A stretch of 64,000 nucleotides of DNA, from positions 1,792,333-1,856,332 of the forward strand of contig CAWGHO010000003.1 in the NCBI GenBank assembly GCA_963822445.1, written 5' to 3'. Each line of letters opens with the position of its first letter. The first letter of the stretch is position 1. The notes below the pieces were generated by a model. That model was not told where the DNA came from, searched no databases, and was given only the letters and a program-made list of their open reading frames with translations. Shown in pieces: positions 9,701 through 57,655 of the stretch. Origin of the DNA: an uncultured Acidobacteriota bacterium. GTDB taxonomy: Bacteria; Acidobacteriota; Thermoanaerobaculia; Gp7-AA8. Position numbers and translations under genes: made by a program.

Positions 9701-10571
9701 CGTGCTCACCAATCCGAACGCAAACGCGGTCCTCCTCGACGACACCGCCATCGGCACGATCACCGACGATGACGGCGCGCCTGCGCTGAGCATCGACGAC
9801 GTCACGCTCGCCGAAGGGAACGCCGGCACGACCAACTTCGTCTTCAACGTCACCCTCGCGCCGGCGAGCGGACAGACAGTCACCGTCGATTACACGACCA
9901 GCGGCGGCGACGCCACGGCCGGCAGCGACTACACGCCGACGTCCGGTACGCTCACGTTCACGCCCGGCGACACCAGCGAGACCATCACCGTAACGGTAGC
10001 CGGCGACACGAGCATCGAGCCGACCGAGACGTTCAACGTCGTGCTCTCGAATGCGCCGCTCGCTGCAATCACGGACGCCACCGGTCAGGGCACGATCACC
10101 AACGACGACGTCGCGCCGGTCGCTGACCTGAGCCTGACCAAAGCCGTCGTCGGCAGCGGACCGTTCGTCGTCGGCCAGAACGCGACGTTCACGATCACGC
10201 TTTCGAATGCCGGTCCCGACGCGGCCGCGAATGCGACCGTCACCGACATCCTCCCCGCCGGAACGACGTTCGTCTCGGCGACGCCAACCAGCGGAACGTG
10301 CAACGGAACGACGACCGTGATCTGCAACGTGGGAACGCTCGCCAACGGCGCGAACGCGACTGTCACGCTGACTGTGCAACTCAACACGCCCGGGACCATC
10401 ACCAACACGGCCACGGGCGCCTCCGAAGCCGGCGACCTCTCCCCCGCCCTCGGCACCGCCGCGATCAACGTGACCGCCGCCGCCGAAGGCGTTGCCATTC
10501 CGACGCTTTCGCAGTGGATGCTGATTGCCCTCGCCGCAGCCCTGGCTTGTTTAGGAGTGCGGCGGCCCTAG
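6783..10571 (+). CDS. giant secreted protein: signal peptide, CSLREA (choice-of-anchor Q) motif, right-handed parallel beta-helix repeats, 5 Calx-beta domains, DUF11-like domain, C-terminal IPTL-CTERM-type sorting signal
   Basis: Signal peptide MQKRKKIATGAALAMGAVLAPEAVEA; AAGAGG RBS upstream of the ATG at 6783. CTLREAITNANAN motif; GGAIY/GGAIL beta-helix repeats; five VDFATAG..ATSG.DFT..SGT.TF....TS..ITV...D...EPNETFNV repeats (Calx-beta); DUF11-like segment LSLTKAVVGSGPFVVGQNATFTITLSNAGPDAA; C-terminus IPTLSQWMLIALAAALACLGVRRP. The ORF extends upstream to 5694, but that part is antisense to the preceding gene. Confidence 0.8.
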   Translation: MQKRKKIATGAALAMGAVLAPEAVEAAVITVNSTADTAAVDAQCTLREAITNANANAATEVDCAAGTGLDTIDFALTLPATITLSGTSLSIVDPLIIDGPGQTDLTIDANDASRIFEIADGDSGTSMTVEINDLTLANGNDATESFPGGGAILSAETLVITNVTFSGNDGAAGGAIYLYSPSNPNLTVTGSTFTGNTSAADGGAILAVGGDVTITGSTLTLNTALCCGGAIKKIEGAFTLTDSTVTGNSATIGGGIALYYTDTTTITNSTISGNEALLSGGGLYFYGPAGLVTIEDSVISANEAAYGGGVWLSYAGESPVVIRDTEISGNTATDSAGGLYLYDVDDVTLERVRLINNTADAYDGGGALWDAKVTIIESQISGNQAPIVGGLYVAYGSYLYLINSTVANNTASTGSVGGLGINFSFAAIDVSTISGNSAPAGAAGNIFSYGSGLYITNSIVANGIALAGPDLVTATSTVEINYSLIEDTAGASFTGSNNITGVDPQLGPLQNNGGPTETVKPAPASPVVNAGDPLYTTPPNDQRGFPRPVGIVDMGAVELSPGVLDISAANAVGEGAGFITITVTRTGGSDGAASVNYTTNSGTATSGADFTATAGTLNWADGDAAPKSFNVNITDDLIFEGNEQFTVTLSGATVATLGADTALITITDNDAAPTISINDTGNTEGSNVVFNVTLSNPTTQTVTVDFATAGVTAASGVDFTANSGTITFNPLVTSQPITIVTTQDAIDEPNETFNVVLTNPNANATIFDGTGVGTITDDDPTPTISINDAGQTEGTNIVFQVTLSGASSETITVDFATAAVTATSGTDFTANSGTITFTPGDTSEQITVVTAQDAVDEANETFNVNLTNPSAGATILDGTGVGTIGDDDPSPTISIGDSGALEGANVVFNVTLSAPTEQVVTVDFATAGNTATSGVDFTPNSGTLTFNPLVTSQQITVATSPDGFDEPNETFNVVLTNPNANAVLLDDTAIGTITDDDGAPALSIDDVTLAEGNAGTTNFVFNVTLAPASGQTVTVDYTTSGGDATAGSDYTPTSGTLTFTPGDTSETITVTVAGDTSIEPTETFNVVLSNAPLAAITDATGQGTITNDDVAPVADLSLTKAVVGSGPFVVGQNATFTITLSNAGPDAAANATVTDILPAGTTFVSATPTSGTCNGTTTVICNVGTLANGANATVTLTVQLNTPGTITNTATGASEAGDLSPALGTAAINVTAAAEGVAIPTLSQWMLIALAAALACLGVRRP

Positions 10572-10625
10572 CCGCCGCTTTGCGATCCCTTCGCAAAGCG
10601 GCGGCTCTGCCGCCGCACTCCTATA
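10550..10625. repeat. palindromic repeat element, copy A (TTTAGGAGTGCGGCGGC...GCCGCCGCACTCCTATA); contains the stop codon and last ~7 codons of the upstream giant gene
   Basis: Nested inverted repeats GGAGT/ACTCC, GCGGCGGC/GCCGCCGC (twice), central CGCTTTG...CAAAGCG; shares its ends and internal stems with copies at 12586, 48136 and 56861. Confidence 0.8.
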
Positions 10626-10633
10626 CTTTCCCT

Positions 10634-11680
10634 ATGAAGCTTCTCTGCGCACTTCTCCTCACGTTCCCGCTCGCCGCCCAACTCCGCCCCGTCAACACCT
10701 ACTCGATCGTCGCCCGCGATCCGGCGAACGGCCAGATCGGCGTGGCCGTGCAATCGCACTGGTTCGCGGTCGGGCAGATCGTTCCCTGGGCGGAAGCCGG
10801 AGTCGGTGCGGTTGCGACGCAGAGCTTCGTCGATCCGTCGTACGGCAAGCTCGGACTCGATCTCCTCCGCGCCGGCAAGAGCGCACCTGACTCCTTGCGA
10901 GCGCTCCTCGGCGGCGACGCCGCCTGTGAAGTGCGCCAGGTCGCATTCGTCGACGCATCCGGCAACGTGGCCACGTTCACCGGCGCGCGGGACATCGTCG
11001 CCGCGGGCGGAATCGCATCGCAGGCCTCATCGACCCAGGAAACGAAATGCGGCACTCACGGCGGAACGCTGAGCATTGGCAAAGACTTCGCCGTGCAGGC
11101 CAATCTCATGGAGAACGACAAAGTCTGGCCGGCCATGGCCAGGGCTTACTCCGAATCGAAAGGCGATCTCGCCGAGCGCATGCTCGCCGCGCTCGATGCC
11201 GCGCAGGCCGTCGGCGGCGACATCCGCGGCAAGCAGTCCGCGGCGCTGGTCGTCGTCGGTGCGAAATCGACCGGACGCTCCTGGCAGGATCGTGTCTTCG
11301 ACCTTCGCGTCGACGACGCTCCCGATCCACTCGCCGAGCTCCGCCGCCTCGTCGCGTTGCAGCGCGCCTACAACCACATGAACGCCGGCGATCTCGCCGT
11401 CGAGCACAAGGACCATCAATCTGCGTTGCGCGAGTACAGCGCGGCCGAGACCATCGCCTCGACCACGCCCGGCATTCCCCAGAGCCGCCTCGCCGAGATG
11501 ACCTACTGGCACGCGGTGTCGCTGGTGAACATGGGCCGCGCGGACGAAGCGCTGCCTCTCTTCGCGCGGGTCTTCAAGCTCGAGCCCGCGTGGCGCGAAC
11601 TGACCCCGCGCCTGGTGAAGTCCGGCCTGCTACCCGACGACGCCAAGCTCACTGAGCGCATCGTCAAGGTCAAGCCCTGA
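10634..11680 (+). CDS. secreted DUF1028 (Ntn-hydrolase superfamily) protein with C-terminal TPR-like region
   Basis: Signal peptide MKLLCALLLTFPLAAQ; TYSIVARDPANGQIGVAVQSHWFAVGQIVPWAEAGVGAVATQS matches the DUF1028 signature; C-terminal TPR-like helices. Confidence 0.7.
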   Translation: MKLLCALLLTFPLAAQLRPVNTYSIVARDPANGQIGVAVQSHWFAVGQIVPWAEAGVGAVATQSFVDPSYGKLGLDLLRAGKSAPDSLRALLGGDAACEVRQVAFVDASGNVATFTGARDIVAAGGIASQASSTQETKCGTHGGTLSIGKDFAVQANLMENDKVWPAMARAYSESKGDLAERMLAALDAAQAVGGDIRGKQSAALVVVGAKSTGRSWQDRVFDLRVDDAPDPLAELRRLVALQRAYNHMNAGDLAVEHKDHQSALREYSAAETIASTTPGIPQSRLAEMTYWHAVSLVNMGRADEALPLFARVFKLEPAWRELTPRLVKSGLLPDDAKLTERIVKVKP

Positions 11681-11957
11681 AGGTTTCCATCCCCTTCAGC
11701 ACGAGCAGCGTGTTTCGGCGGTCCCATGCGCCGAGGGCGACCATGCCGATGATGACGATGGTGTAGGTGGCGATCGTCGAGAGAAAGAGCAGCACGTGCA
11801 GCCGCTGCGAGAAATCGGCGAGCAGCAGAAACGCCACGAGGAAGGCCAGCTCGATCAGCGCTGCCCCGAAGAACGCCAGTTTGTAGTGGCGCTCCGCGCG
11901 GTCGATGCGCTCGAGAGTGGAACGGCGGATCGTGTCGAGATCGGGATTCGTGTTCAT
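11670..11957 (-). CDS. small membrane protein (2 TM), downstream of the ECF sigma factor; candidate minimal anti-sigma/regulatory partner
   Basis: AAAGGAGAA RBS immediately upstream of the ATG; N-terminal 25 aa soluble, then two hydrophobic helices. Confidence 0.5.
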   Translation of the reverse strand: MNTNPDLDTIRRSTLERIDRAERHYKLAFFGAALIELAFLVAFLLLADFSQRLHVLLFLSTIATYTIVIIGMVALGAWDRRNTLLVLKGMETFRA

Positions 11958-11967
11958 GGTTCTCCTT

Positions 11968-12075
11968 TCACTTCCTGCACGCCAGGTAGATCACCAGAGG
12001 AATGAGCACGAGGGCCTCGATGACGACGTACGCCCAGACCATGGCCTTCTCGCTCATTCCTTTTTGTTCGCTCAT
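11968..12075 (-). CDS. 35-aa single-TM micro-protein translationally coupled to the sigma factor (start ATG overlaps the sigma stop as ATGA)
   Basis: MSEQKGMSEKAMVWAYVVIEALVLIPLVIYLACRK; start/stop overlap with the sigma-factor gene; no homology evidence. Confidence 0.35.
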   Translation of the reverse strand: MSEQKGMSEKAMVWAYVVIEALVLIPLVIYLACRK

Positions 12076-12581
12076 GACGGTTTGATCGCCGCGCGCAGGC
12101 AACGCAGGCCGTACGCGAGACGCGATTTGACGGTTCCGATGCTGATGCCGAGGACTTCGGCGATGTCGCTGAGGGTCATCGATTGCGTGTAATGCAGCGT
12201 GAGCACGGCCCGGCTCGCCGGTGAGAGCGCGTCGATGTGTGCCGGAAGCGCTTCGAGCAGAGGCTCGTGCTCGTCCGGGACGACTTCGGCGGGTAGATCG
12301 GGCGGCAACGGCTCTTCGTGCAATCGCCGCGTCTTCTTCAGCTTCCTGAATGCGGCCCGCGACGCGATGCGAAACGCCCACGGCTCGAACAGCGCCGGAT
12401 CGCGCAGCCAGTCGAGCTTGCGGTAGATCGTGAACAGCACCTCCTGCAGCACATCCTCGGCGAGCGTCGCGTCGCCGAGGACCGCGCGGAGGTAGCGGAA
12501 CAGCGGGCCCTGCATGCGGGTGAGGAGCGCGTCGAGCGCCTCCCGATCACCTGCCTGAGCCTTCAGAACGAGCCATTGCAT
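12072..12581 (-). CDS. RNA polymerase ECF-type sigma-70 factor
   Basis: Region 2 (EDVLQEVLFTIYRKLDWLRDPALFEPWAFRIASRAA) and region 4 HTH (SMTLSDIAEVLGISIGTVKSRLAYGLRCLR). Confidence 0.85.
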   Translation of the reverse strand: MQWLVLKAQAGDREALDALLTRMQGPLFRYLRAVLGDATLAEDVLQEVLFTIYRKLDWLRDPALFEPWAFRIASRAAFRKLKKTRRLHEEPLPPDLPAEVVPDEHEPLLEALPAHIDALSPASRAVLTLHYTQSMTLSDIAEVLGISIGTVKSRLAYGLRCLRAAIKPS

Positions 12582-12585
12582 AGTT

Positions 12586-12640
12586 GGAGTGCGGCGACTC
12601 TGTCGCCGCTTTCAAAGCGGTGGCAGAGCCACCGCACTCC
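12586..12640. repeat. palindromic repeat element, copy B, in the divergent promoter region between the sigma factor and the peptidase gene
   Basis: GGAGTGCGGCGAC-TCT-GTCGCCGC-TTTCAAA-GCGGTGGC-AGA-GCCACCGC-ACTCC; begins 5 nt upstream of the sigma-factor start codon. Confidence 0.8.
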
Positions 12641-12662
12641 ATTAGAGCCAGGAAGTAGCCAG

Positions 12663-14453
12663 GTGTTCGAATTGTTTTTGCGGCCGGTGCTACTCCTCGC
12701 CGCGTTCCTCGCCCTCGCCCAGGACGTCTTCGTGCCGCCCGTGCCCATCGGCGTCGCGCGCGAGGGCAAGGTCCGCACGGTCAAGCAGCCCATCCCCTTT
12801 CCGAAAGAGTCGCAGAAGTGGATCCGCGTCCGGACGCCGCGCTTCGACGTCCTCAGCAACGCTGACGAGGCTCGCACGCGCGACATTGCCGGCGACCTCG
12901 AATCGCTCGCCGCCGCGCTGGTCGAAGCGGCGCCACGGTTCGAGAACGCCCGCGTGCCGGCGACGGTGTTCGTCTTCGCCGATCGCGGCGAAAGCCAGCC
13001 GTACTTCGATCTCCTGACCGGGATGGAAGGCACGAACGTGTCCGGCCTTTACGTCCGGCACAGCGGCGGCGGAACGATGTTCATCGACGGCTCCCGGCGC
13101 CATTTCGAGCGCACGGCCACACATGAGCTGGTGCACGACCTCTTGCGACAGGGTGACGTCGTACCGCCGCTCTGGCTCGAAGAAGGGCTGGCCGAGTATG
13201 TCGCCAACGCGCAGGTCACGAAGAAAGGCGTGGCGGCCGGTCTGCCGATCGTTGCGCACGCGAAGATTCTCGAGTCGAAACCGAAGCGGACGATCGAGCA
13301 GATGCTGGAGATGAAAAACGAATCGCCCGAATCGGCATCGTCGTACTTTTACGCGCAGAGCTGGGCGGCCGTGCACTGGCTGATGAAGACCAATGCGAAA
13401 GCGTTCTGGCCCTTCCTGCGCGATCTCGAGCGAGACACGCCCGCCGTGGACGCGCTGAAGGCGCACTACCACCAGTCGCTGGAGGATTTGAATCGCGGTC
13501 TTCACGCGAACGTTCGCCGCAGCGCACCGGTCGATCTCGCCGGCCATGCGCCGGCCGTCACGACCGATGTCGCGACCATCGATCGCGCCACGGTTCTGTA
13601 CGAGCTCGGCGCCTTCCTTGGACACGTCGCCGGCGCCGAGACGGAATCGGACCGCCACTATCGCGAGGCGCTGCGGATCGAGCCGAAGCACGCTCGCACG
13701 CTCGCCGCAATCGGCGACTTCGAAGCGGCGCTCGCCGCCGATCCGCGCGACGCCGAGATTCCGCTGAAATACGCCGAAGTCCTCCTCGGCCCCGCCATCG
13801 GCGATTTCGCCGGCGTATTCGAGCCCGCCGATCCCGAGCGCTTCCGCAAGGCCCGCGAGATGGCCCTGCGCGCGCTGAGCCTCGGCGCGAGCGAAGCTCG
13901 CGCTCGCGGCGCGCTCGGCATCAGCTACCTCGCCGACGACGATTTCGCCTCCGGAATCACGGCGCTCGAACGTGCGCGTGCGCTCGCGCCCTGGCGGATG
14001 GACTACGCCATCCACCTCTACTCGATGTACCTCCAGACCGGCGAGCGCGCGAAAGCCGACGCGCTCTTCGCGGCCGCGTTCGAGAACGCGCGCGATAAGC
14101 AGGTGGCCTTCGCCGCGCGCAACGTGCTGCTGGATGCGGAAACGAATCGCGCGAACGCGCTTGCGCAGGAGGGGAAGCTGGAAGAGGCCGCGGCGCTCGT
14201 TCGGCAAATCGCCGCAACGATCCCCGATGTAAACGCGCGCGGCGACCTCGAGCGTCAGGCCGCGGAGATCGAGTCGCTGGTGCTCGTGAACCAGCACATC
14301 GGCTTGTACAACGAGGCGGTGACCCACTCGAACGCCGGCCGGAAGAAAGCCGCGCTGAAGATTCTCGATGATCTGATGAAGGTCGTTACCGACGCGAGAG
14401 TAAAGCGCGACGCCGAGAAACTGCGGCGCGAATTGCGAGGGCAGAAGCCTTAG
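12663..14453 (+). CDS. secreted HExxH zinc-metallopeptidase-like protein with C-terminal TPR repeats
   Basis: Signal-like N-terminus VFELFLRPVLLLAAFLALAQD (GTG start at 12663 inferred; the ORF extends to 12318, but that part is antisense to the sigma factor); TATHELVHDLL (HExxH); the C-terminal half is TPR-like. Confidence 0.55.
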   Translation: MFELFLRPVLLLAAFLALAQDVFVPPVPIGVAREGKVRTVKQPIPFPKESQKWIRVRTPRFDVLSNADEARTRDIAGDLESLAAALVEAAPRFENARVPATVFVFADRGESQPYFDLLTGMEGTNVSGLYVRHSGGGTMFIDGSRRHFERTATHELVHDLLRQGDVVPPLWLEEGLAEYVANAQVTKKGVAAGLPIVAHAKILESKPKRTIEQMLEMKNESPESASSYFYAQSWAAVHWLMKTNAKAFWPFLRDLERDTPAVDALKAHYHQSLEDLNRGLHANVRRSAPVDLAGHAPAVTTDVATIDRATVLYELGAFLGHVAGAETESDRHYREALRIEPKHARTLAAIGDFEAALAADPRDAEIPLKYAEVLLGPAIGDFAGVFEPADPERFRKAREMALRALSLGASEARARGALGISYLADDDFASGITALERARALAPWRMDYAIHLYSMYLQTGERAKADALFAAAFENARDKQVAFAARNVLLDAETNRANALAQEGKLEEAAALVRQIAATIPDVNARGDLERQAAEIESLVLVNQHIGLYNEAVTHSNAGRKKAALKILDDLMKVVTDARVKRDAEKLRRELRGQKP

Positions 14454-14459
14454 GCTATT

Positions 14460-15557
14460 TTGCCGAAGCCCACCATGCGTCCCTGCGAAATCCATCGTCT
14501 CCATCTCGTCACCTACGAAAACGGGATGAAGCTCCAGCAGAAACTGGTCGAGCTGCGGCAGCGCGAGGAGATCGCCGATCAACTGCTCCTCCTCGAACAT
14601 CCACCAGTGATCACCCTCGGCCGCGGCGGCGACACCACCAACCTGCTCGCGCCACCCCACGTCCTCGCCGAGCAGCGCGTGCGCTTCTTCGAGACCACCC
14701 GCGGCGGCGACATCACCTACCACGGCCCCGGCCAGATCGTCGGCTACCCCATCCTCCACCTCGGCGAAGGCAACCGCGACGTCCGCAAGTACGTCACCAA
14801 ACTCGAGGAAGTGCTCATCCGCACCGTCGCCGAATACGGCATCACCGCGGAGCGCTTCGAAGGCAAGCGCGGGATCTGGGTCGGCTCGAACAAGATCGCC
14901 GCGATCGGCGTCCGCATCGCGCGCTGGGTCACGTCCCATGGCTGGGCGCTCAACGTCAGCACGAACCTCGATCACTTCCGTCTGATCACCCCCTGCGGCA
15001 TCCGCGGCATGGGCGTCACCTCGATCGAACGGGAGATCGGCCGCCCCGTTCCTCTCGACGAAGTGCGCGAGACTCTCGCGGCGAAGTTCGCAGAGATCTT
15101 CGAGCGCGAGCTAGTGGCGCGTCCCGAAACGATCCGCCTGGTGAAGGTGCTCGTGCACGATGGCGATCGCGTGCTGCTCCTGCATCGCCGCGCCGAGCGG
15201 GGAAACTTCTGGCAACCCATCACCGGCTCGATCGAGGAAGGCGAGCTGCCGGTGGAGACCGCACGGCGGGAGCTGATCGAAGAGACCGGTCATCCCGGCG
15301 ATCCGCGCGCTCTGGATCTTCGCCAGTCGTTCCTCATCGAGTCCGCGTACCTCTCCGCGAAGTATTCAGGGCCGATCATCGCCAGCGAAGTCGGCTTCGC
15401 GGCGACGCTCGACTCCAGCCTGCCGATCGCGCTCGATGAGCAGGAACACGATGGGCATGGCTGGTTCACGTTTGCCGAGGCTTATGAAAAGATCCGGTGG
15501 ACCGACGATCGGGAGGCTTTGGAACGGTTGGAAGCCTCGCTGCCGGTGACCGCATGA
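14460..15557 (+). CDS. lipB: octanoyltransferase LipB fused to a C-terminal NUDIX hydrolase domain
   Basis: LipB core (HPPVITLGRGG, YHGPGQIVGYPI, RGIWVGSNKIAAIGVRI); C-terminal Nudix box GSIEEGELPVETARRELIEETG. Confidence 0.85.
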   Translation: MPKPTMRPCEIHRLHLVTYENGMKLQQKLVELRQREEIADQLLLLEHPPVITLGRGGDTTNLLAPPHVLAEQRVRFFETTRGGDITYHGPGQIVGYPILHLGEGNRDVRKYVTKLEEVLIRTVAEYGITAERFEGKRGIWVGSNKIAAIGVRIARWVTSHGWALNVSTNLDHFRLITPCGIRGMGVTSIEREIGRPVPLDEVRETLAAKFAEIFERELVARPETIRLVKVLVHDGDRVLLLHRRAERGNFWQPITGSIEEGELPVETARRELIEETGHPGDPRALDLRQSFLIESAYLSAKYSGPIIASEVGFAATLDSSLPIALDEQEHDGHGWFTFAEAYEKIRWTDDREALERLEASLPVTA

Positions 15558-16456
15558 CCCCCATCAATAAACGAGCTGGCGTCCGCCCGGAGTGGCTGAA
15601 GATCCGCGTGCCGGGCGACCTCGCTTCGCTCCCCGTGTCGCAGCTCATGAACGACCTGCGGCTGAACACTGTCTGCCAGGAAGCGCGCTGCCCGAACATC
15701 TTCGAATGCTGGACCGCGGGCACCGCGACGTTCATGGTCCTCGGCGAGATCTGCACGCGGCGCTGCACCTTCTGCGCGGTCGGCCGCGGCGAGCCGCTCG
15801 TTGCCGATGGCGACGAGCCGCGGCGCGTGGCCGAAGCGGTTGCGGCGATGGGCGTCAAACACGCGGTCATCACCATGGTCAATCGCGACGACATGGCGGA
15901 CGGCGGCGCGGAGCATGTCGCGGAGACTGTTCGCTCCGTGCGCGATCGCACGGGAGCTGCGGTGGAAGTGCTGATCTCCGACCTCGAAGGAAACCGCGAC
16001 GCGTTGCGCACCGTGATGGCTTCGCAGCCGGAAGTGCTCGCGCACAATGTCGAGACCGTGCCGCGGCTCTACGCGCAAGTGCGTCCCGTCGCGAAGTACC
16101 AGCGCTCGATCGAACTGCTCCGCTGGGCTCACGAAGAACGCGCCGAGGGAATGCTCACCAAGTCCAGCATCATGCTCGGCCTCGGCGAAACGGAAGAGGA
16201 GATCCTCGCCGTCGCCCGCGATCTCCGCGAAGCCGGGGTGGACATCTTCACCATGGGCCAATACCTCGCCCCGAGCGAGAAAAATCACCCCGTCCGCCGC
16301 TACTACACCCCCGACGAATTCGCGGAGCTCGGCCGCCAGGCCCGGGCCCTCGGCTTTCACCACGTGGAGAGCGCGCCGCTGGTGCGGAGCTCGTACATGG
16401 CGCACAGGGCAGTACGCGCGCCTGACGACGCGCTCGCAGTGGGCAGTGGGCAGTAG
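15554..16456 (+). CDS. lipA: lipoyl synthase LipA
   Basis: Radical-SAM and Fe-S cysteine motifs (CQEARCPNIFEC; CTRRCTFCAV); start ATG overlaps the lipB stop (ATGA). Confidence 0.9.
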   Translation: MTPINKRAGVRPEWLKIRVPGDLASLPVSQLMNDLRLNTVCQEARCPNIFECWTAGTATFMVLGEICTRRCTFCAVGRGEPLVADGDEPRRVAEAVAAMGVKHAVITMVNRDDMADGGAEHVAETVRSVRDRTGAAVEVLISDLEGNRDALRTVMASQPEVLAHNVETVPRLYAQVRPVAKYQRSIELLRWAHEERAEGMLTKSSIMLGLGETEEEILAVARDLREAGVDIFTMGQYLAPSEKNHPVRRYYTPDEFAELGRQARALGFHHVESAPLVRSSYMAHRAVRAPDDALAVGSGQ

Positions 16457-16531
16457 GCAGGCCCACCCGCCCGCGGGGAGAAGTGCAACGTGGTTGGGCG
16501 GTGGCCCACTGCCTACTGCCCACTGCCTGCT
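16436..16531. repeat. long imperfect hairpin built from GTGGGCA/GTAGGCA heptamers (family 2, copy 1); encodes the last residues and stop of lipA
   Basis: 5' arm GCAGTGGGCAGTGGGCAGTAGGCAGGCCCACC; 3' arm GGTGGCCCACTGCCTACTGCCCACTGCCTGC; ~24-nt loop. Confidence 0.7.
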
Positions 16532-16576
16532 GCGAGCGCCCGCAGGGCGCGTACTGACTGCTAGAATCCCGGCCCG

Positions 16577-16855
16577 ATGCCCCGAGTGACGTTCGCAGAC
16601 GAAGGTAAATCGGGCGAATTTCCCTCGGGCAAGTCGCTCCTCTCCATCGCCGGAGAGCTCGGCGTTCGCGTCAGCCAGGTCTGCGGCGGCGACGGCGCGT
16701 GCGGGACTTGCAGGATCGAGGTCATCGAGGGCTGGGACTGCCTCACCCCCCCCACCCCCGACGAGACGTACAAAGAGCTCGATCCGCCCCACCGGCTGAG
16801 CTGTCAGGCGAAGTTGATGGGTGATGTAGTGATCAAAGTAGCGAAGATCGAATGA
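16577..16855 (+). CDS. 2Fe-2S ferredoxin
   Basis: CGGDGACGTC ... C cysteine pattern of plant-type/adrenodoxin-like ferredoxins. Confidence 0.8.
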   Translation: MPRVTFADEGKSGEFPSGKSLLSIAGELGVRVSQVCGGDGACGTCRIEVIEGWDCLTPPTPDETYKELDPPHRLSCQAKLMGDVVIKVAKIE

Positions 16856-16862
16856 GGTACGA

Positions 16863-17656: not shown

Positions 17657-17661
17657 GGCTC

Positions 17662-19535: not shown

Positions 19536-19586
19536 CGCTCGAAATATCCAGTCATTCGGGCTGTTAAGTCTAGTCCCGGCCGCTCC

Positions 19587-19616
19587 TTGACGGTCGGAAG
19601 CCGGGCCTCCTACAAT
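19587..19616 (+). promoter_or_regulatory. sigma-70-like promoter for the tRNA gene (TTGACG -18- TACAAT)
   Basis: TTGACG at 19587-19592 and TACAAT at 19611-19616, ~19 nt upstream of the mature tRNA 5' end. Confidence 0.45.
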
Positions 19617-19634
19617 CCCGGTCCCCTCGCACCT

Positions 19635-26316: not shown

Positions 26317-26504
26317 CGCCGCTGCGCGGCGCGTTACGCGGTTTCGAGGTTGCGGGGTTACGAGGAAGACGGATCCAAACCTCGTAACCTCCAAACCCCG
26401 TAACCCCGTAACCCGCAACAGAATATCGACCCGGCAGACCTCGTTACGTCCGTGAGTAGATGGCATGGGCGAAGCATCGCCCAGCCCTCGTTGGAGGCAA
26501 TCCG

Positions 26505-47328: not shown

Positions 47329-47382
47329 TTCTTTACAAGCTCGGCTGTCACCCTTAAACTCGACCGGTTCATTCCGGTAACC

Positions 47383-48138
47383 ATGAAGACCACAATGCCT
47401 CGTGTCGGGTGGGTTGGCAGGCTGATGGCCTTGCCTATCCTCCTTTCCCTCCTCACCGCCTGTTCCACGACCACGGTCGTGGCCACGCCGCCCGTGCCGG
47501 TCTCGGATGACGAAGATTTCAGCGATCTCATCGCCCAGATGCGGGCCGATCTGACCCGCCGCAAGAGCCGCGAGGTGGTCCAGACCGCGACGACGACGCC
47601 GACGGTCGACACGAAGAAGCAGCGCGACAAAGAGTTCGCCGCCCGGGCCCAGGAGCTGTGCGCGCCTCTCTCCCGCGCTTCCCTGGCCATGCCGGTCGTC
47701 GGCGTGCAGCCGTACGACCTCTACAACAGCTGGGGGCAACCGCGCGACGGCGGCCGCCGGAAACACCGCGGTATCGACATCTTCGCGCCGAAAGGCACGG
47801 GCGTCGTCGCAGTCGCGGACGGAATCATCAGCTTCATCGGCGAGCAGCCGAAAGGCGGCCAGTGCATCTGGCTGACCACCGAAGCCGGTGCCTCGTTCTA
47901 CTACGCGCATCTCGATCGCTGGGCACCCGGCCTCTACGAAGGCATGGAAGTCCGCACCGGCGATCTTCTCGGCTACGTCGGCAACACCGGCAACGCCAAG
48001 ACCACCCCTCCGCATCTCCATTTCGGGATCAACGACAACGACGAAATGGTGAACCCCTACCCTGTCCTCGCGAAGGCAACGCCGGTCAAGCGCGCGCGGG
48101 TGATGGTGGAAGCGGGCGGCTCAATGGGCACGCGGTAG
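47383..48138 (+). CDS. M23 family metallopeptidase lipoprotein
   Basis: Lipobox LLTACS; HRGIDIFAP..., YAHL, TGNAKTTPPHLHF. Confidence 0.85.
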   Translation: MKTTMPRVGWVGRLMALPILLSLLTACSTTTVVATPPVPVSDDEDFSDLIAQMRADLTRRKSREVVQTATTTPTVDTKKQRDKEFAARAQELCAPLSRASLAMPVVGVQPYDLYNSWGQPRDGGRRKHRGIDIFAPKGTGVVAVADGIISFIGEQPKGGQCIWLTTEAGASFYYAHLDRWAPGLYEGMEVRTGDLLGYVGNTGNAKTTPPHLHFGINDNDEMVNPYPVLAKATPVKRARVMVEAGGSMGTR

Positions 48139-48226
48139 TGGAGTGCGGCGGCTCTGCCGCCGCTTTCACATCGCGCGGAGCGCGGCTCCGCCGCGTCTCA
48201 AAGCGGTGGCAGAGCCACCGCACTCC
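48136..48226. repeat. palindromic repeat element, copy C (expanded central loop), between convergent M23 peptidase and folK; supplies the folK stop and last ~9 codons
   Basis: TAGTGGAGTGCGGCGGC-TCT-GCCGCCGC-TTTCACA...TCTCAAA-GCGGTGGC-AGA-GCCACCGC-ACTCC. Confidence 0.8.
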
Positions 48227-48722
48227 AAACCTCGGCTAACGGCTCGATCACGAACGACCTCTCACGCGCCCGCGGATGCGGCAACGTCAGCGTCTTCGTC
48301 CGCAGACGATGACCGCCGTGCAGGATCAGATCGAGATCGATGACCCGCGGCTCGTTTTTCCCACCGCGGCGTTTGCGTCCGAGGCGGCTCTCGATCTCGA
48401 GAAGCGCATCCATCAACGCCTCCGGGTCGAGCGACGTGTACCCGCTCAAGACCATGTTCAGAAACGGCGGGGGCGGCGCGTCGACCGGCTCGGTCTCGTG
48501 AATCGAGCTGAGTCGCACGACTCGCACGATATCGCCTAGAGCGTGAACGGCACGAAGCAGGTTGTAGCGGCGGTCGCCGAGGTTCGAGCCGAGGGCGATG
48601 ACAACAGAGCTAGTGATGCTCGATGTTGATGTCGTTGGTGAGCTCGTTGACGTCGGCGTGCGCGCGCGGGAAGTAGTGCCGGAGCTCTTCCCCCGCGCTG
48701 TGAATGGCTTCGACGATGCCAT
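48198..48722 (-). CDS. folK: 2-amino-4-hydroxy-6-hydroxymethyldihydropteridine pyrophosphokinase
   Basis: VVIALGSNLGDR...PFLNMVL...PRVIDLDLIL signature. No ATG/GTG/TTG between the Ser/Thr-rich 38-aa N-terminal extension and the conserved core, so the start is uncertain and the ORF overlaps the upstream TPM gene by 112 nt. Confidence 0.7.
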   Translation of the reverse strand: MASSKPFTARGKSSGTTSRARTPTSTSSPTTSTSSITSSVVIALGSNLGDRRYNLLRAVHALGDIVRVVRLSSIHETEPVDAPPPPFLNMVLSGYTSLDPEALMDALLEIESRLGRKRRGGKNEPRVIDLDLILHGGHRLRTKTLTLPHPRARERSFVIEPLAEVWSAVALPPL

Positions 48723-49820: not shown

Positions 49821-49833
49821 CGAGTGTGCGCCC

Positions 49834-50460: not shown

Positions 50461-50461
50461 A

Positions 50462-50773: not shown

Positions 50774-50823
50774 GTGTGTGTGGATCCCCTTCCAAAAAAC
50801 GGGCGAAGGCTAGCATAAAAGAC

Positions 50824-50909
50824 AGTAGGCGGTAGGCAGTAGGCGGCAGGCGGGGGAACGGGGCCGTTGAGTCTCCCGCCTACCGCCTACCGCAAACCGC
50901 CTACTCGTC
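50824..50909. repeat. long imperfect hairpin built from GTAGGCR heptamers (family 2, copy 2), between the ctp gene 3' end and the Zn-ribbon/lemA operon 5' end
   Basis: 5' arm AGTAGGCGGTAGGCAGTAGGCGGCAGGCGGGGG; 3' arm CCCGCCTACCGCCTACCGCAAACCGCCTACTCGTCTGCCTACT. Confidence 0.7.
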
Positions 50910-50912
50910 TGC

Positions 50913-52583: not shown

Positions 52584-52708
52584 AGTCTCAGCGCCCTACG
52601 ATAAACTTTGCGATGGTAACGCGTTTAGTGAGACGGAGTATTCATCGGAAGGTTGCTGTTCACGCCGCCGTCACACCGTTCCAATCGTTCGCGAAAGTCC
52701 TCACATAA

Positions 52709-53053
52709 ATGTTCGGCTCACTCGGAGTTCCCGAGCTACTGCTCATCTTCGTCGTCATCCTGATCGTGTTCGGGCCGCGGAGGATTCCGGAGATCGGCCG
52801 CACCCTCGGCAAGGCCCTCGGCGAGTTCCGCAAAGCCACCGACGACCTCAAGAGCACCATCGAGCGCGAGGTACGGCTCGAAGAGCTCAAGAAGATCACC
52901 CCTCCGACGCTGGAATCGATCATTACGCCTTTCGAATCGGTATCAAGGAATGAGCCATCGGAGGTTCCGCCCGCCGAGGCCGCGCCCGAGCCCGCTCCTG
53001 TCGCCGAAACCGTGCCGGAGTCCGTCACGCCCGCAGCGTCGCGCGCCGAGTAA
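52709..53053 (+). CDS. tatA: twin-arginine translocase TatA/TatB family protein
   Basis: MFGSLGVPELLLIFVVILIVFGPRRIPEIGRTLGKALGEFRKA. Confidence 0.8.
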   Translation: MFGSLGVPELLLIFVVILIVFGPRRIPEIGRTLGKALGEFRKATDDLKSTIEREVRLEELKKITPPTLESIITPFESVSRNEPSEVPPAEAAPEPAPVAETVPESVTPAASRAE

Positions 53054-53056
53054 CGA

Positions 53057-53818
53057 ATGGCCGCCGATCCCACCATCGATACGCAGGATCCCGATGCCGA
53101 GCTCCCCAAGATGGGGTTCCTCGATCACCTCGAGGAGCTTCGCAAGCGCCTGATGATCTCGCTGATCGCGGTTGCGGTCGGCTTCCTGGCGTGCTGGGCC
53201 TTTGCGGAGGAGATCTTCGGCTACCTGCAGGCGCCGCTGACCCGGTTCCTGCCGCCCGGCGACAAGCTCGCCTTCACCCGCCTGACCGCGCCGTTTTTCC
53301 TATACATGAAGGTGGCTTTCTTCGCGGGCCTCTTCGTCGCCGCGCCGGTGATCCTGCTGCAGCTCTGGCTCTTCATCGCGCCCGGCCTGTACAAGAAGGA
53401 GCGCCGCCTGGCCGCGCCGTTCATCATCTTCGGCTCGGTCTTCTTCATCGCCGGCGGCTACTTCGGCTATCGCTACCTGCTCCCGGCGACGTGCAGCTTC
53501 TTCGTCGAGACCGGCAAGCAGTTCAAGCAGATGGTGACCGTCGACGATTACTTCGGCTTTGCCAGCGTGATCATCCTCGCCACCGGCGTGGTCTTCGAGA
53601 CCCCGATCCTGATCTTCTTCCTGGCCCGCCTGGGCATCGTGACGCCGGCGTTCCTGATGCAGAAGTTCAAATACGCGATCGTGCTGGCGTTCGTGATCTC
53701 CGCGGTCATCACCCCGACGCCGGACATGGTGACTCAGGCCGCGCTGGCCATCCCGATGATCCTGCTCTACCTGCTGGGCGTGGGCGTGGCGTACCTGTTC
53801 GCGAAGCCGATCGAGTGA
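53057..53818 (+). CDS. tatC: twin-arginine translocase subunit TatC
   Basis: LDHLEELRKRL, 6-TM TatC core. Confidence 0.88.
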   Translation: MAADPTIDTQDPDAELPKMGFLDHLEELRKRLMISLIAVAVGFLACWAFAEEIFGYLQAPLTRFLPPGDKLAFTRLTAPFFLYMKVAFFAGLFVAAPVILLQLWLFIAPGLYKKERRLAAPFIIFGSVFFIAGGYFGYRYLLPATCSFFVETGKQFKQMVTVDDYFGFASVIILATGVVFETPILIFFLARLGIVTPAFLMQKFKYAIVLAFVISAVITPTPDMVTQAALAIPMILLYLLGVGVAYLFAKPIE

Positions 53819-53822
53819 CCGG

Positions 53823-54322
53823 CTACCAGCTTCGTTCCCACTGCCACCAGCGGGGATGAATGCGGCGATAGGTGTCCTCGCCGATTCTCGGCGGCTCACT
53901 CTGGCTGAACACGACCCCGCAGTCGTCGAACATGCACTCGGTGGTGATCAGCCGAACGACGCCGCTGGACACGCGCTCTGTCTCCAACACCTTGAAAAGC
54001 GCGACGCGCCGCGGCTCGCGATTCGCGACGGCACTGGCGACGTATTGCTCCAGAGCCGGCCGGCTGACAAGAAATCGAACGCGAAATGGGGCGCCGGTCA
54101 GAATGAGTCCGAGGATTAGCAGGACCACGGTTGGCTCGAGCCAGATCCGGCTGAGGCGCTCGTGCCGGTAGCGGAGTGTGCTCGAGGCGATGACCCAGCC
54201 AAGGAGCATGGCGAAGCCGCCATAAAGAACCAGGAGTAAGGCCAGGACGGACAACCCCGCGTCGCTGCCGAGCCAGAGACTGGTTGCGCCCCAGACGGTG
54301 ACGATCGCGACGCGAAGGGCGC
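53823..54322 (-). CDS. hypothetical membrane protein (3 TM + soluble C-terminal domain)
   Basis: Protein-like C-terminal ~165 aa of ORF 53823..54569; GTG start inferred after the upstream small ORF; the N-terminal part of the long ORF is low-complexity. Confidence 0.35.
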
Positions 54323-54334
54323 GGATCACTGCCC

Positions 54335-54550
54335 TCAGCGTTCGACTTCGAAATCCGCCGAAACCGCGGGCAGGGCCTCGTTGAAGATGATTACCGTCTC
54401 CGCGATCGGAAACAGGACCGTGTGGTTCCGCGACTGCACTTCCAGCACGATCTCGTAGTAGCCGCTGTCGCTGATCGCGATCAGCGTGCCGGGCTTCCCC
54501 TTCACTTCGAGCGTGCGGTTGAAAATCGAAACCTTGGACGGAATCTCCAT
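54335..54550 (-). CDS. hypothetical 71-aa protein
   Basis: Compositionally protein-like (MEIPSKVSIFNRTLEVKGKPGTLIAISDSGYYEIVLEV...), lower Arg/Ala content than surrounding antisense ORFs. Confidence 0.35.
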   Translation of the reverse strand: MEIPSKVSIFNRTLEVKGKPGTLIAISDSGYYEIVLEVQSRNHTVLFPIAETVIIFNEALPAVSADFEVER

Positions 54551-54573
54551 GCGCGACGAACTCTAGCACGACG

Positions 54574-56364
54574 CTACGGGCGTCGTGGACCCCACACCAG
54601 CATGGTCAGTTTGAGGACCTGTTCGCGCGGCGGATCGACGTCGATGCGCAGCAGATTGGCCGGCCGTCCCTGCACGTCGTAGTCGCGATCGACGAAGCCG
54701 GGAGCACGCGCGATCCGGTCGATGACCTGGCCGTTGAAGGTGATGGTCACGTTCGCGTTGTCGTGCACGTTGAACGCGAGACGGAGCTTGGCGTCCCCTT
54801 CGACTCGCGGGAGTTGGATGGCCGACGTTCCCGACATCCATCGCCATTCGAATCGCCCCGAGCGCTCCGGCGCACTCCAGCCGCTCACGAATCGCGGTCG
54901 CGCGATCAGAGGCCGCAAGGCAACGTCGTAGTAGTAGTGACGGGTGATGTTCCAGAGGTTGCCCCGCTCCCGCGCGAAGAGCGTCCCGCCACTTCCCCCT
55001 CCCCGCGCCTCGGCAAGCACGATGGCCCGATGCCCGTTCGTCGTCAGCGGCATGGCCCTCTCCTCGGCCACCTGCAGAAACCCCAGTTGCGGCGCAAGGT
55101 ACTCGACGAACGGCACCATGCTGAAGCCGACATACAACTGATCGCGCACCGGATGAATTTGCGCGGCCGCAGCCTCGATCGCGCGCACCGGCGGCGATTT
55201 TTCGTTGCGCACCGGCGTGAGCGCGGGCCAGGTCCAGAGCACGAATGCGGCGATGAGCGCCGCGGCGACGACGCTCTCGTACTTGCGCGCCGCGCGTGAG
55301 ATGCCGTACGCGGCGAGGATCGCAAACAACGGCGCGTAGCCGATCGAGAAGCGGTTGACGCTGAAGCGGTCGAGCATCAGCCAGGTCATGACCGCCACCG
55401 GCGCAAAGGTCAGCGCCGCGTACAACACCGGTTTCTCGCGCGATCGAATGGCCGCCACGACGCCGAACAGCACGAAGATCGAGGTGATGATGCTCAGCGG
55501 CCGCGATTGGTACTGCAGCAGAAAAAAGCGATCGAAAAGACGCCAGAGCGGCGGGCGGTCGGGACTGCGGAACGAATCGACGCGGGCGATGTAGTCGCCA
55601 TGCTCGCGAACGGCGCGCATGTAGCGATCGATCCCGCCGGTCGCTTCGGCGGCGAACCAGAATGCGCCGCCGGCGATGGTGATGCCGAGGATCGCGGCGA
55701 GGGCGACGTCGCGCCAGTCCTTTCGGGCGCGATACCAGGTCGCGAAAAGGCCCGGCGCCAGTCCGATGAGGATGTTCTGCGGACGGATCCCGATGGCGAT
55801 GGCCAGCAGGAATGTGCCGAGGAGGTACCACTCTGAGCCGCGGCAGCCGCGGAAGAGAAGCGCGGCAGCCAGCGACGCGATGACGATCCCCGGGACGTCG
55901 CTCAGCGCCGTGCCGCCGAAGAACCAGACGTTCGGGAAGAACGCGCAGAGCGTCGCCGCCGTCGCCGCAACGGCGAAGCGGAAGCGGAGCTCGCGCGCGA
56001 GGAGGAAGATCGAGGGAAAAAGGAAGACGCCCGCCGTCAGACTGATCGACTGCAGCGCGCGGAAGTCGCTGCCCACGATCAAGCGCGCGACTTTGGCCAT
56101 GGCCATGAACGCGGGGAATCCCGGCGGATGGGGATGATGGCTGCTGACGTCGTACGCGCGCATCCCCAGGCAGAAAAGCGCTTCGTCCCAGCCCCAGATG
56201 GATCGGGCCATGGCCGCGAAGCGCGTGGCCGCGCAGAGCACGGCCAGGACCCAGAGGATGGTCCATTGGCGGCGCGTCAATGGGTCGGGAGGCTGAAGCA
56301 GATTCAAACGGGGGCGAATGTTACGCTGCCGGTCAATGCTCCGACGCGTGGTCATCCTGGCCAT
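54574..56364 (-). CDS. membrane glycosyltransferase of the ArnT/PMT (GT39/GT83-like, GT-C fold) family
   Basis: TM1 followed by the WGWDEALF loop motif, >10 TM helices, soluble C-terminal domain; start uncertain (ATG 56364 overlaps the divergent gene; an in-frame TTG lies at 56280). Confidence 0.7.
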   Translation of the reverse strand: MARMTTRRSIDRQRNIRPRLNLLQPPDPLTRRQWTILWVLAVLCAATRFAAMARSIWGWDEALFCLGMRAYDVSSHHPHPPGFPAFMAMAKVARLIVGSDFRALQSISLTAGVFLFPSIFLLARELRFRFAVAATAATLCAFFPNVWFFGGTALSDVPGIVIASLAAALLFRGCRGSEWYLLGTFLLAIAIGIRPQNILIGLAPGLFATWYRARKDWRDVALAAILGITIAGGAFWFAAEATGGIDRYMRAVREHGDYIARVDSFRSPDRPPLWRLFDRFFLLQYQSRPLSIITSIFVLFGVVAAIRSREKPVLYAALTFAPVAVMTWLMLDRFSVNRFSIGYAPLFAILAAYGISRAARKYESVVAAALIAAFVLWTWPALTPVRNEKSPPVRAIEAAAAQIHPVRDQLYVGFSMVPFVEYLAPQLGFLQVAEERAMPLTTNGHRAIVLAEARGGGSGGTLFARERGNLWNITRHYYYDVALRPLIARPRFVSGWSAPERSGRFEWRWMSGTSAIQLPRVEGDAKLRLAFNVHDNANVTITFNGQVIDRIARAPGFVDRDYDVQGRPANLLRIDVDPPREQVLKLTMLVWGPRRP

Positions 56365-57655
56365 CCTGTCGACCGCCGTGCGCGTCTGGCTCGCCCACCA
56401 CTACTACGGGTTCGAGACCGGTGACGACGTGGAGATCGCGCAGGAAGCGTTCCGCGCCGCGCTGGGGCTCGATTACGCGCCCTGGAACATCCGCAATCTC
56501 TTCGTCTCGAACGCGCTCGTCGCGCCGCTGCTGCAGATCGCGTCGCTCTTCGGCGTCACCGATCCCTTCGCGCTGGCGACGCTGGCCCGCTATCCGTTCA
56601 TCCTGTTCGCCGGAGTGAACGTCCTCCTGGTCTACTTCCTCGGCCGCCAGTGGTTTTCGGAGGAAGCGGGCTTTCTCGCCGCGGCGCTCTATTCGATTCA
56701 CTGGCTGCCGCTGGTGTTCGGGAGCTCGCTCTATCCGCGGATTCCGGGGACGACGTTTCTTTTGCTGGCGGCGCTGGCCGGACATTTCCCCGCCGGCTGG
56801 CTCGCTTCGCTCGCGTTCGCGATGAGGTACAGCGAGATCGTGTTTCTGCTTCCGTTGCTGTTTAGGAGTGCGGCGGCAGGGCCGCCGCTTTCCTACCAAA
56901 GCGGCGACTGGCGCCGCCGCACTCCTAAACTGGTCGGCGGCTTCGCACTGGGCGTCCTCCTCTTCGTCGGCCTCTACGACTGGCTCTCTTGGGGCCGCCC
57001 GTTCGCGAGCCTCATCGAGTTCGCGCGCTACACGCTCATCGCCCGCGAGTCCTCATCGCTCGTCAAAGCGCAGCCGCCCTGGTGGTACATCGCCGCGCTA
57101 CCGCAGTGGCTCGCGCCACCGCTTTGGCCGTTCCTTTGGCGTGAGAAAAAGAAAGCGCTCGCGTTCATCGTCCTGCCCGTGATCGCCCTCAGCCTCATCC
57201 ATCACAAGGAGCTGCGCTATCTGCAGGCGGTCATTCCCTTCGCCATGATCCTCGCCGCGGCAGGCGCGCTGGCCTGGTGGAAGGAGGGCCGGCGCAAGCT
57301 GGTGATCGTGCTGCTGATCCTCGCCCTGCCCCTTCAGCTCGCGCGCATTCGCTCGATCGAAAAGCGGACCATGGCCGCCGTCGATGCCGCCCGCTCCATG
57401 CAATCCGCGAATCGCGTCGCTTTGTCGCAAGAGTGGGCGTACGGGGGAAGACTCTTTCTGCACAACGTCGAGGAGCTGGGGATTCCGCCGGATGTGGCGC
57501 GGCTGCGCGAGGCTGCGCCGCGAGTCGATTGCGTGGCGATGTATCGGAGTCAGATCACGCCGGAGATGCGGGCGATCGTCGCGGAGGCAGGATTGACGAC
57601 TGCGCGCGGCTTCGAGCGCGCGCGCAGTCGTCCGGTGGACGTCTTCTGCCGGTGA
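56318..57655 (+). CDS. polytopic membrane protein, GT-C-type glycosyltransferase-like, carrying an in-frame 69-nt palindromic-element insertion
   Basis: ~10 TM helices, HHYYGFETGDDVE loop; continuous ORF through repeat copy D (56861-56929), which encodes LFRSAAAGPPLSYQSGDWRRRTPK. Confidence 0.5.
   Translation: MLRCRSMLRRVVILAILSTAVRVWLAHHYYGFETGDDVEIAQEAFRAALGLDYAPWNIRNLFVSNALVAPLLQIASLFGVTDPFALATLARYPFILFAGVNVLLVYFLGRQWFSEEAGFLAAALYSIHWLPLVFGSSLYPRIPGTTFLLLAALAGHFPAGWLASLAFAMRYSEIVFLLPLLFRSAAAGPPLSYQSGDWRRRTPKLVGGFALGVLLFVGLYDWLSWGRPFASLIEFARYTLIARESSSLVKAQPPWWYIAALPQWLAPPLWPFLWREKKKALAFIVLPVIALSLIHHKELRYLQAVIPFAMILAAAGALAWWKEGRRKLVIVLLILALPLQLARIRSIEKRTMAAVDAARSMQSANRVALSQEWAYGGRLFLHNVEELGIPPDVARLREAAPRVDCVAMYRSQITPEMRAIVAEAGLTTARGFERARSRPVDVFCR
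56861..56929. repeat. palindromic repeat element, copy D, inserted in-frame (69 nt = 23 codons) inside a coding sequence
   Basis: TTTAGGAGTGCGGCGGC-AGG-GCCGCCGC-TTTCCTACCAAA-GCGGCGAC-TGGC-GCCGCCGC-ACTCCTAAA; flanked by CTG on both sides. Confidence 0.8.

Follow-up and report, generated by a model that had tools for sequence, protein, structure and literature searches.

GGAGT-footed inverted palindrome doublets, probably of the REP type, at gene boundaries and within a gene of a Thermoanaerobaculia genome

The window analyzed here is a stretch of 64,000 nucleotides (64 kb) from the genome of an uncultured bacterium of the Thermoanaerobaculia (Acidobacteriota; assembly GCA_963822445.1, contig CAWGHO010000003.1). 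It carries four copies, A to D, of a small palindromic element, each located at a gene boundary or within a gene and each composed of two inverted half-units that start with the pentanucleotide GGAGT and enclose a spacer of 1 to 33 nt. Most probably, these are repetitive extragenic palindromes (REPs) arranged as inverted doublets (REPINs, i.e., REP doublets forming hairpins). The positions of the copies and the matches of their arms to a covariance model of the half-unit (R1, see below) are as follows.

Copy A, 10550..10625, probable REP doublet (REPIN-like), half-units 10554-10581 (+) and 10595-10621 (-), 13-nt spacer, TTTA/TATA flanks; R1 matches 10548-10584 (+) and 10592-10627 (-)
Copy B, 12583..12643, probable REP doublet, half-units 12586-12612 (+) and 12614-12640 (-), 1-nt spacer; R1 matches 12580-12615 (+) and 12611-12646 (-)
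Copy C, 48137..48229, probable REP doublet, half-units 48140-48166 (+) and 48200-48226 (-), 33-nt spacer with its own GC hairpin; R1 matches 48134-48169 (+) and 48197-48232 (-)
Copy D, 56861..56929, probable REP doublet, half-units 56865-56891 (+) and 56898-56925 (-), 6-nt spacer; R1 matches 56859-56894 (+) and 56895-56931 (-)

An initial annotation of the window had described four nested palindromes at these places and had assigned each to a gene boundary or gene interior; the covariance model and the folding analysis confirmed the four elements as inverted doublets, and the gene contexts proved correct. Copy A provides a protein with Calx-beta, DUF11, and IPTL-CTERM domains with its final codons (...GVRRP) and its TAG stop, as had been proposed, and ends 9 nt before the ATG of a DUF1028 gene. 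Tandem repeats of 327 nt, five or six in number (8569-10118), correspond to the Calx-beta domains of the same IPTL-CTERM protein. Copy B occupies the 81-nt gap between two divergent genes, one encoding an extracytoplasmic function (ECF) sigma factor (12072-12581, -) and the other a DUF1570/TPR protein (12663-14453, +, with a GTG start at 12663); its predicted proximity to the sigma factor start was verified, the ATG (complement, 12579-12581) being 4 nt away from GGAGT. Copy C is situated between the convergent genes for an M23 peptidase, whose TAG stop (48136-48138) lies in the left flank of the element, and HPPK (folK; stop at 48198-48200, -), so that both convergent stops are within 0 to 2 nt of the copy. 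As anticipated, its right arm encodes the end of HPPK, specifically its terminal 10 codons (VWSAVALPPL) followed by the TGA stop. Copy D, with a length of 69 nt, is an in-frame insertion in a gene for a GT22 mannosyltransferase (56336-57655, +), where it encodes FRSAAAGPPLSYQSGDWRRRTPK and thereby adds 23 amino acids (aa) in a loop between hydrophobic segments of the protein.

The half-unit conforms to the consensus [TTT/TA/TAT]-GGAGT-GCGGYGRC-loop(3-6)-GYCRCCGC-TTT, with a stem of 8 bp and a total length of 27 to 30 nt, and the logo of 277 half-units collected from the window and from the other loci described below reads TTT-GGAGT-hairpin-TTT. An alignment of 108 units from many phyla shows an invariant GGAG followed by a nearly invariant T; the GGAGT foot, the GCGG/CCGC stem base, and the TTT are retained across phyla, while the upper stem varies with compensation. 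Three end types recur in this larger sample, i.e., TTT-, TA- (TTTA), and TAT-GGAGT, and the two end-motif subtypes previously distinguished in the window are found among them. Stem pairs are standard in 98.5% of cases and include 87 double-change cells, a result matched by none of 500 shuffles. At the two stem positions that had been left free by the search pattern, 177 of 183 units each show Watson-Crick pairing (Fisher p ~1e-41, with copies that are not independent of one another), and G-T or wobble pairs are rare there (4 to 5 of 183), similar to A-C combinations (1 to 2 of 183). The GGAGT unit thus possesses two features by which REPs are recognized, namely, a short palindrome with a structurally conserved stem and a conserved foot directly 5' of the hairpin.

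The model R1 was built from 108 examples of the half-unit and used to scan both strands of the window with filters switched off. It returned eight full-length matches with 42.8 to 48.4 bits (E ~1e-8 to 1e-9), which are the eight arms of the four doublets, and the exact motif GGAGTGCGGYG is likewise confined to the eight arm ends. No fifth copy, intact or degenerate, was detected in the 64 kb with this unfiltered search; the next best matches reached at most 20 bits and mostly represented the opposite strand of the same hairpins, indicating that the window harbors four elements and no decayed extras. One of these marginal matches (57103-57128, 18.7 bits), a hairpin with TTT and without foot, is located inside the GT22 gene approximately 180 nt downstream of copy D and is probably a chance GC hairpin. 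The folding check proposed in the initial annotation gave a uniform result: for every doublet of the window, the predicted structure was a single long hairpin (-46 to -79 kcal/mol; z values of -7.7 to -12.6), and none of 200 shuffles was as stable.

Orthologous loci in related genomes show that these elements are present or absent at given positions. For site D, the 23-residue insertion aligned only in the GT22 protein of the window and in the homologues P0002, P0003, and P0005; most GT22 relatives have no long insertion, and those of P0006 and P0007 are longer and of a different kind. With 92% aligned identity the closest homologue after P0001, P0004 retains the ancestral ...GGAI-RVVAGF. In the corresponding DNA, loci L122, L123, and L124 retain the element at the same position, and it is missing in L001 (which encodes P0004) and L002, where approximately 21 nt stand opposite the 69 nt of the window. 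Site B is cleanly empty in L128 and L129, which read CTCTTATCGTAYGGACATG vs CTCTAAT[GGAGT...ACTCC]AACTATG in the window; L128 shares the gene order DUF1570, sigma factor, two small open reading frames (ORFs), and DUF1028. Close relatives that share the gene order thus do without the hairpin at sites B and D, which makes it dispensable at these positions. Site C is occupied in L122 (2179-2270) by a different, unrelated palindrome, GTGTAGCGTGGGCCTCTGGCCTACC...GGTAGGCCGGAGGCCCACACTACAC, between the same M23 and HPPK genes, so that the element residing in this convergent gap varies among lineages; the L122 palindrome, too, extends into the HPPK reading frame. For site A, relatives are uninformative because the neighboring gene differs, and L100, which is syntenic to window 14.4-17.4 kb, has neither the sigma factor nor the DUF1028 gene and is therefore uninformative for sites A and B. 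Upstream of the DUF1028 orthologue of L128 (5790-5970), at the position of copy A, lies a long inverted repeat with arms of approximately 45 nt (GACGACGTGGGCGCCTCCGGCGGGGGCCG... and its complement), a further palindromic element unrelated to GGAGT units. In the neighborhood of the GT22 gene, the window contains directly downstream a 2108-aa ORF (57656-63982, -) with tandem 228-nt repeats at ~59.0-61.3 kb; the relatives L001, L122, and L123 have a PpiC-type rotamase in its place, indicating that this neighborhood has been rearranged.

A direct target-site duplication was found neither at any of the four copies nor at the empty sites B and D. The outer 3 to 5 bases beside GGAGT are inverted repeats (TTT/AAA, TAT/ATA, and TTTA/TAAA), and flanks that are inverted rather than direct do not represent a target-site duplication. 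Empty site B (L128 3811-3849, L129 438-485) contains TATGGAC, which is close to the element end TATGGAG, and empty site D (L001 ~935-960) contains the small GC palindrome GATCGC-GGGCGGG-GCGATC; both could be due to chance.

The unit is widespread. When one genome of each species was scanned with the search pattern, at least 119 loci were obtained, with about 48 assemblies of metagenome-assembled genomes (MAGs) among the matches listed, and a pattern scan of metagenomes gave at least 120 loci. Most of the listed genome matches belong to Thermoanaerobaculia, the lineage to which the names of protein homologues likewise assign the window, and the others include Acidoferrales, Blastocatellia, several Planctomycetota, Opitutia, Udaeobacter, Victivallales, a Chlamydiia contig (47% GC), a Pirellulales contig (48% GC), Methylomirabilota, and Sphaerobacter, i.e., other Acidobacteriota as well as members of the Planctomycetota, Verrucomicrobiota, Lentisphaerota, Chlamydiota, Methylomirabilota, and Chloroflexota. 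Together with Hydrogenedentota, this makes at least eight phyla in which the 27-nt consensus is nearly the same, genomes of 47 to 48% GC included. Among the listed matches of both scans, several MAGs have more than 10 separate loci each, and the window has 4 copies in 64 kb. In these loci, 67 convergent doublets were found with spacers of 1 to 147 nt; doublets of the same genome have identical arms and differing spacers, often with extra small hairpins. The ability of inverted doublets to form one long hairpin, another property of REPs, is hence seen in the four window copies and in 67 further cases. About 19 "double-foot" single hairpins (GGAGT-hairpin-ACTCC), tandem arrays, and unpaired single units also occur. 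In a crude ORF test, ~55 of 60 doublets were located outside long ORFs; note that the same test misclassified copies B and D of the window and carries little weight. The genes beside the repeats, the ORFs between distant repeat pairs, and the recurrent neighbor families were all of ordinary housekeeping type. Viral carriage was limited to two pattern matches in 2.9 million viral contigs, and no transposase of the clade described below was present there. A notable share of the pattern matches is located within tens of bases of contig ends (e.g., L009, L015, L025, L032, L034, and L057), which suggests that GGAGT repeats break short-read assemblies.

The partner enzymes of REPs are REP-associated tyrosine transposases (RAYTs). 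In 0.9 Mb of genome-derived loci, none was detected with approximate seeds of E. coli RayT and IS608 TnpA or with HuH...Y regular expressions; the latter demanded N-P and were therefore blind to the N-A variant. A marginal RayT match on L026 was rejected, as it consisted of tandem repeats and contained no gene. In the metagenome locus L168, three tandem unit doublets directly precede an ORF with HuH (HYH) and Y (YVHQNAVKHGLV) motifs. This ORF matches the NCBIfam model "REP-associated tyrosine transposase" with an E value of 6e-17, below the curated cut-off, and has more than 5,000 homologues of ~189 aa, some of which are named REP-associated tyrosine transposase in their source. Three homologues were then picked on protein similarity alone, and their neighborhoods were scanned for the unit, with the following outcome.

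L168/L250 (Hydrogenedentes), RAYT gene 850-1359, REPs at 504-836 and 1493-1529
L252 (Verrucomicrobia), RAYT gene 1917-2486, REPs at 1857-1901 and 2500-2702
L253 (Lentisphaerae), RAYT gene 4001-4534, longer-stemmed doublets on both sides with TGGAGTGCGG...CGCACTCCATA ends

The RAYT genes of Hydrogenedentes and Verrucomicrobia have R1 matches of 32 to 44 bits on both sides. A RAYT gene flanked by its REPs, the arrangement called a REPtron, is thus found in L250/L168, L252, and L253, all outside the source genome of the window. The encoded proteins have HYH as their HuH motif and YVHQN[PA]VKHGLV as their Y motif, match NCBIfam NF047646 ("REP-associated tyrosine transposase") with 62 to 75 bits (E 1e-17 to 1e-21), and have E. 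coli TnpA_REP (4ER8) as their sole PDB match. A hidden Markov model (HMM) built from 120 homologues was searched over 1.66 Mb of loci and the window; it revealed in the Thermoanaerobaculia MAG SMAG_U3224 (L082 3578-4112, -) a decayed RAYT of the same clade amid REP doublets. This relic keeps SNHYHLV and the C-terminal WCSASWFER...DDY, and it is frameshifted, has lost the region of the tyrosine motif, and has its N terminus overrun by REP-like hairpins. The flanked genes and the relic together indicate that the unit is the cognate REP of this RAYT clade and that the clade was once present in Thermoanaerobaculia. A related arrangement is on record: for the subclass 2.2 TnpA_REP "CaurA01 ABY36092.1", which from its code and accession is presumably that of Chloroflexus aurantiacus, the flanking REPs GGAGTGCGGCAGCCATGCTGCCG and GGCGTGCGGCAGCCATGCTGCCG are listed (Quentin et al. 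2018, PMC6006769, Additional file 2).

The four elements are thus in all probability members of a REP family, present as inverted doublets of the REPIN or bacterial interspersed mosaic element (BIME) kind and moved by a RAYT encoded elsewhere. This interpretation rests on the repeat family, the covarying hairpin, the doublets, the presence/absence pattern, the lack of a target duplication, and the association of REP and RAYT in several phyla. It would imply that a RAYT of this clade has been active, now or formerly, in the genome of the window itself. This enzyme, an HUH/Y1 protein of the IS200/IS605 superfamily, would be encoded once elsewhere in the genome and would recognize hairpin and foot on single-stranded DNA, a candidate substrate being TTTGGAGT-hairpin-TTT. 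By analogy with E. coli TnpA_REP, it would cut the single strand adjacent to the hairpin, with GGAGT and TTT as natural candidates for guide and cleavage sequences, and the unit or doublet would be moved or copied to a new single-stranded target without target duplication. Hairpin binding, foot-guided cleavage, and duplication-free joining are established elements of the model for IS200/IS605 TnpA and TnpA_REP (PMC6006769). Insertions would persist where they do little harm, i.e., at gene ends, in intergenic gaps, and in tolerant protein loops, and may secondarily turn into stop codons, C-terminal tails, and loop peptides.

Several observations weigh against this interpretation. The canonical GT[AG]G foot is absent, its place being taken by GGAGT, and a GTAG in the flank of copy C is no more than a chance match; some RAYT subclasses, on the other hand, have noncanonical feet (PMC6006769). 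BLAST, motif, and HMM searches of the 64-kb window revealed no RAYT or Y1 transposase gene, and the only RAYT seen in Thermoanaerobaculia is a pseudogene. The homologues score just under the curated NCBIfam cut-off of 80 bits, and the shortened copy on L168, the sole one compared with Pfam, is below the Y1_Tnp cut-off. The four window copies are non-identical, and no master sequence is evident among them. Furthermore, ~12 to 21 nt are replaced between the filled and empty states of sites B and D, which is not a clean insertion and makes simple cut-and-paste transposition inadequate as an explanation.

In light of these data, the view of the initial annotation that the copies form a small nonautonomous palindromic family that has moved is supported by the presence and absence of the element at orthologous loci. 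Its classification as REP-, RPE- (Rickettsia palindromic element), or MITE-like (miniature inverted-repeat transposable element) is narrowed to REP/REPIN by the lack of target duplication, the variable spacers, the single units, and the cognate RAYT, while the other two affiliations are not upheld. Past mobility is likewise supported; recent activity in the source genome is not, given that the four copies differ and that copy D is common to four lineages. The possibility that these were the only copies and that relatives carry the same sequences as conserved gene ends does not apply, as related and unrelated genomes alike hold abundant copies, sites B and D can be empty, and site C can hold another element.

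Among the other explanations, it appears improbable that the copies are host-selected signals kept for their use, such as bidirectional terminators, mRNA 3'-end stabilizers, or protein-binding sites, an idea that would be compatible with an origin as REPs. Copies A and C are positioned exactly at 3' gene ends, C between convergent genes, and on the strand of arriving transcription TTT follows each hairpin; however, the stem is trailed by these three T residues only, a run of at least five T in eight is absent, and none of the four copies was called as an intrinsic (Rho-independent) terminator by a terminator scan. The positions of copy B (promoter/5' region between divergent genes) and copy D (inside an ORF) are unexpected for a terminator, and the GGAGT foot has no role in termination. 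Relatives carry other palindromes at site C and upstream of DUF1028, as if some hairpin were wanted at these places, whereas, as noted above, closely related genomes of unchanged gene order lack the element at sites B and D. REPs of other bacteria have been reported to stabilize mRNA and to end transcription (PMC6006769), and for copies A and C a terminator or mRNA-stability role is possible and weakly suggested, though not needed to account for them.

An origin of the elements as MITEs, i.e., as deletion derivatives of a DDE-type insertion sequence (IS) in which the GGAGTGCGG... arms serve as terminal inverted repeats and are mobilized in trans, is very unlikely. The perfect-looking inverted repeats at the termini, the small size, and the dispersed occurrence would be in accordance with such an origin, and copies A and D have TA on both sides. 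However, the flanks are inverted and a direct duplication is absent, also in comparison with the empty sites; the interior ranges from 1 to 147 nt, with unrelated spacers despite identical arms in the same genome; and single arms and single-hairpin double-foot forms are common. In addition, the 1.66 Mb of loci contained no longer element delimited by such ends in "+ ... -" orientation, and the genes that carry GGAGT ends on both sides encode RAYTs and not DDE transposases. A structured noncoding RNA family (small RNA or cis-regulatory RNA) conserved across phyla, which the strong hairpin covariation, the conserved flanks, and the many phyla might bring to mind, is the least plausible explanation, as Rfam gave nothing beyond generic long-hairpin (miRNA-like) noise far below threshold (window at the gathering threshold; copies A and B and six loci of other phyla by E value), the palindrome makes both strands equivalent, the units occur in any orientation and context including ORF interiors, wobble pairs are as rare as A-C so that pairing at the DNA level fits as well as pairing at the RNA level, and multiple copies per genome show presence/absence polymorphism.

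As REP/REPIN elements, the GGAGT repeats can be compared with known systems. With the REPs and BIMEs of E. coli and their TnpA_REP (RayT, 4ER8), they share a short GC-rich imperfect palindrome whose conserved 5' foot directly adjoins the stem, an arrangement as inverted doublets joined by linkers of variable length, a position at the ends of genes, and a Y1/HUH gene flanked by its own REPs. They differ in having a GGAGT instead of a GTAG foot and a conserved TTT 3' of the hairpin, in the RAYT clade (~189 aa, with a conserved C-terminal WCSAxWFER...DDF extension and scores under the NCBIfam cut-off), and in their hosts, which are Acidobacteriota, phyla of the Planctomycetota-Verrucomicrobiota-Chlamydiota (PVC) group, and others, in contrast to the Enterobacteria of the E. 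coli system. The REPINs of Pseudomonas fluorescens, too, consist of two inverted REPs forming one long hairpin; there, the REPIN is treated as the replicating unit, and its RAYT partner typically occurs about once per genome (Bertels and Rainey 2011, PMC3116915), while here the spacers within one genome are very variable (1 to 147 nt) and no dominant master was seen. A further match is CaurA01, whose REPs, GGAGTG/GGCGTG-CGGCAGC-CAT-GCTGCCG, are essentially identical in foot and stem to GGAGT-GCGGCAGC-nnn-GCTGCCGC of several of our loci. It is, however, a single table entry from another phylum, and Quentin et al. 2018 are silent on doublets, the TTT tail, the wide distribution, and copies in Thermoanaerobaculia (PMC6006769). 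A literature search with the unit as a sequence string returned only primers and unrelated matches.

For other REPs, variable dimer spacers, donation of stop codons, positions no more than 20 bp from the ends of both convergent genes, and dimers inside genes that encode 20 to 30 aa have been described (Di Nocera et al. 2013, PMC3733652). Similarities to the intragenic REPs of Opitutus terrae and the RPEs of Rickettsia conorii are evident in the behavior of copies D, A, and C, with in-frame dimers, stop donation, and overlap of ORF ends; the tags are GTAG (or GTGG) in O. terrae, CGTC in R. conorii, and GGAGT here, and the RPE/CGTC repeats have no associated transposase (PMC3733652). An assignment to the Rickettsia RPEs or CGTC-tagged repeats was rejected on account of the GGAGT and TTT ends, copy D resembling an RPE only in its behavior as an in-frame insertion. 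The class 3 TnpA_Y1 hairpins of Planctomycetes and Acidobacteria, of which Solibacter usitatus has approximately 600, are characterized by a CnGA foot, and their enzyme carries NHVH and Y----Q motifs (Quentin et al. 2018, PMC6006769). The shared host phyla made this class a candidate assignment, which was rejected since the foot here is GGAGT and the enzyme motifs are NHYH and YVHQNPVKHG, i.e., like those of class 2 (TnpA_REP). Whether the GGAGT unit and the ~189-aa RAYT clade might constitute a distinct REP superfamily beside the GTAG- and CGTC-tagged ones is a tentative thought, which we regard as doubtful.

All behaviors seen in the window have already been described for other REP families, and the kind of element is ordinary. 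It is represented here by a GGAGT-footed family in the little-studied Thermoanaerobaculia, whose end motif spans an unusually wide range of phyla. These repeats make or alter gene ends and reading frames (a stop with an Arg-rich tail, ten folK codons, and a 23-aa GT22 loop) and crowd a divergent promoter. They probably also break short-read assemblies, and gene callers and comparative work on Thermoanaerobaculia and related MAGs should expect them. A REP-RAYT pair whose recognition motif is unusually constant over distant phyla would be convenient for studying how RAYTs read hairpins and whether REPtrons are at any time passed on horizontally. Should a distinct superfamily exist, either the recognition code between enzyme and DNA would have been conserved for very long or whole REPtrons would have moved repeatedly between phyla, the latter in contradiction to the usual view of strictly vertical REPIN-RAYT inheritance. 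The constancy of the unit across phyla is the one aspect that might merit further work.

Two further types of palindromic repeat were observed in the window. Long hairpins composed of tandem heptamers (GGCAGTG/GGCAGTA and GGCGGTA) that face their reverse complements across 14 to 48 nt are located at 16430-16539 and 50824-50905 and represent a second palindromic repeat family unrelated to GGAGT units. A third hairpin type, assembled from short repeats resembling GGGGTTAC / GAGGTTGC together with the complementary sequences, is found at 26329-26416, and a related half copy lies at 6152-6181 within the listed ORF 5694-10571, upstream of the probable true start of this ORF.

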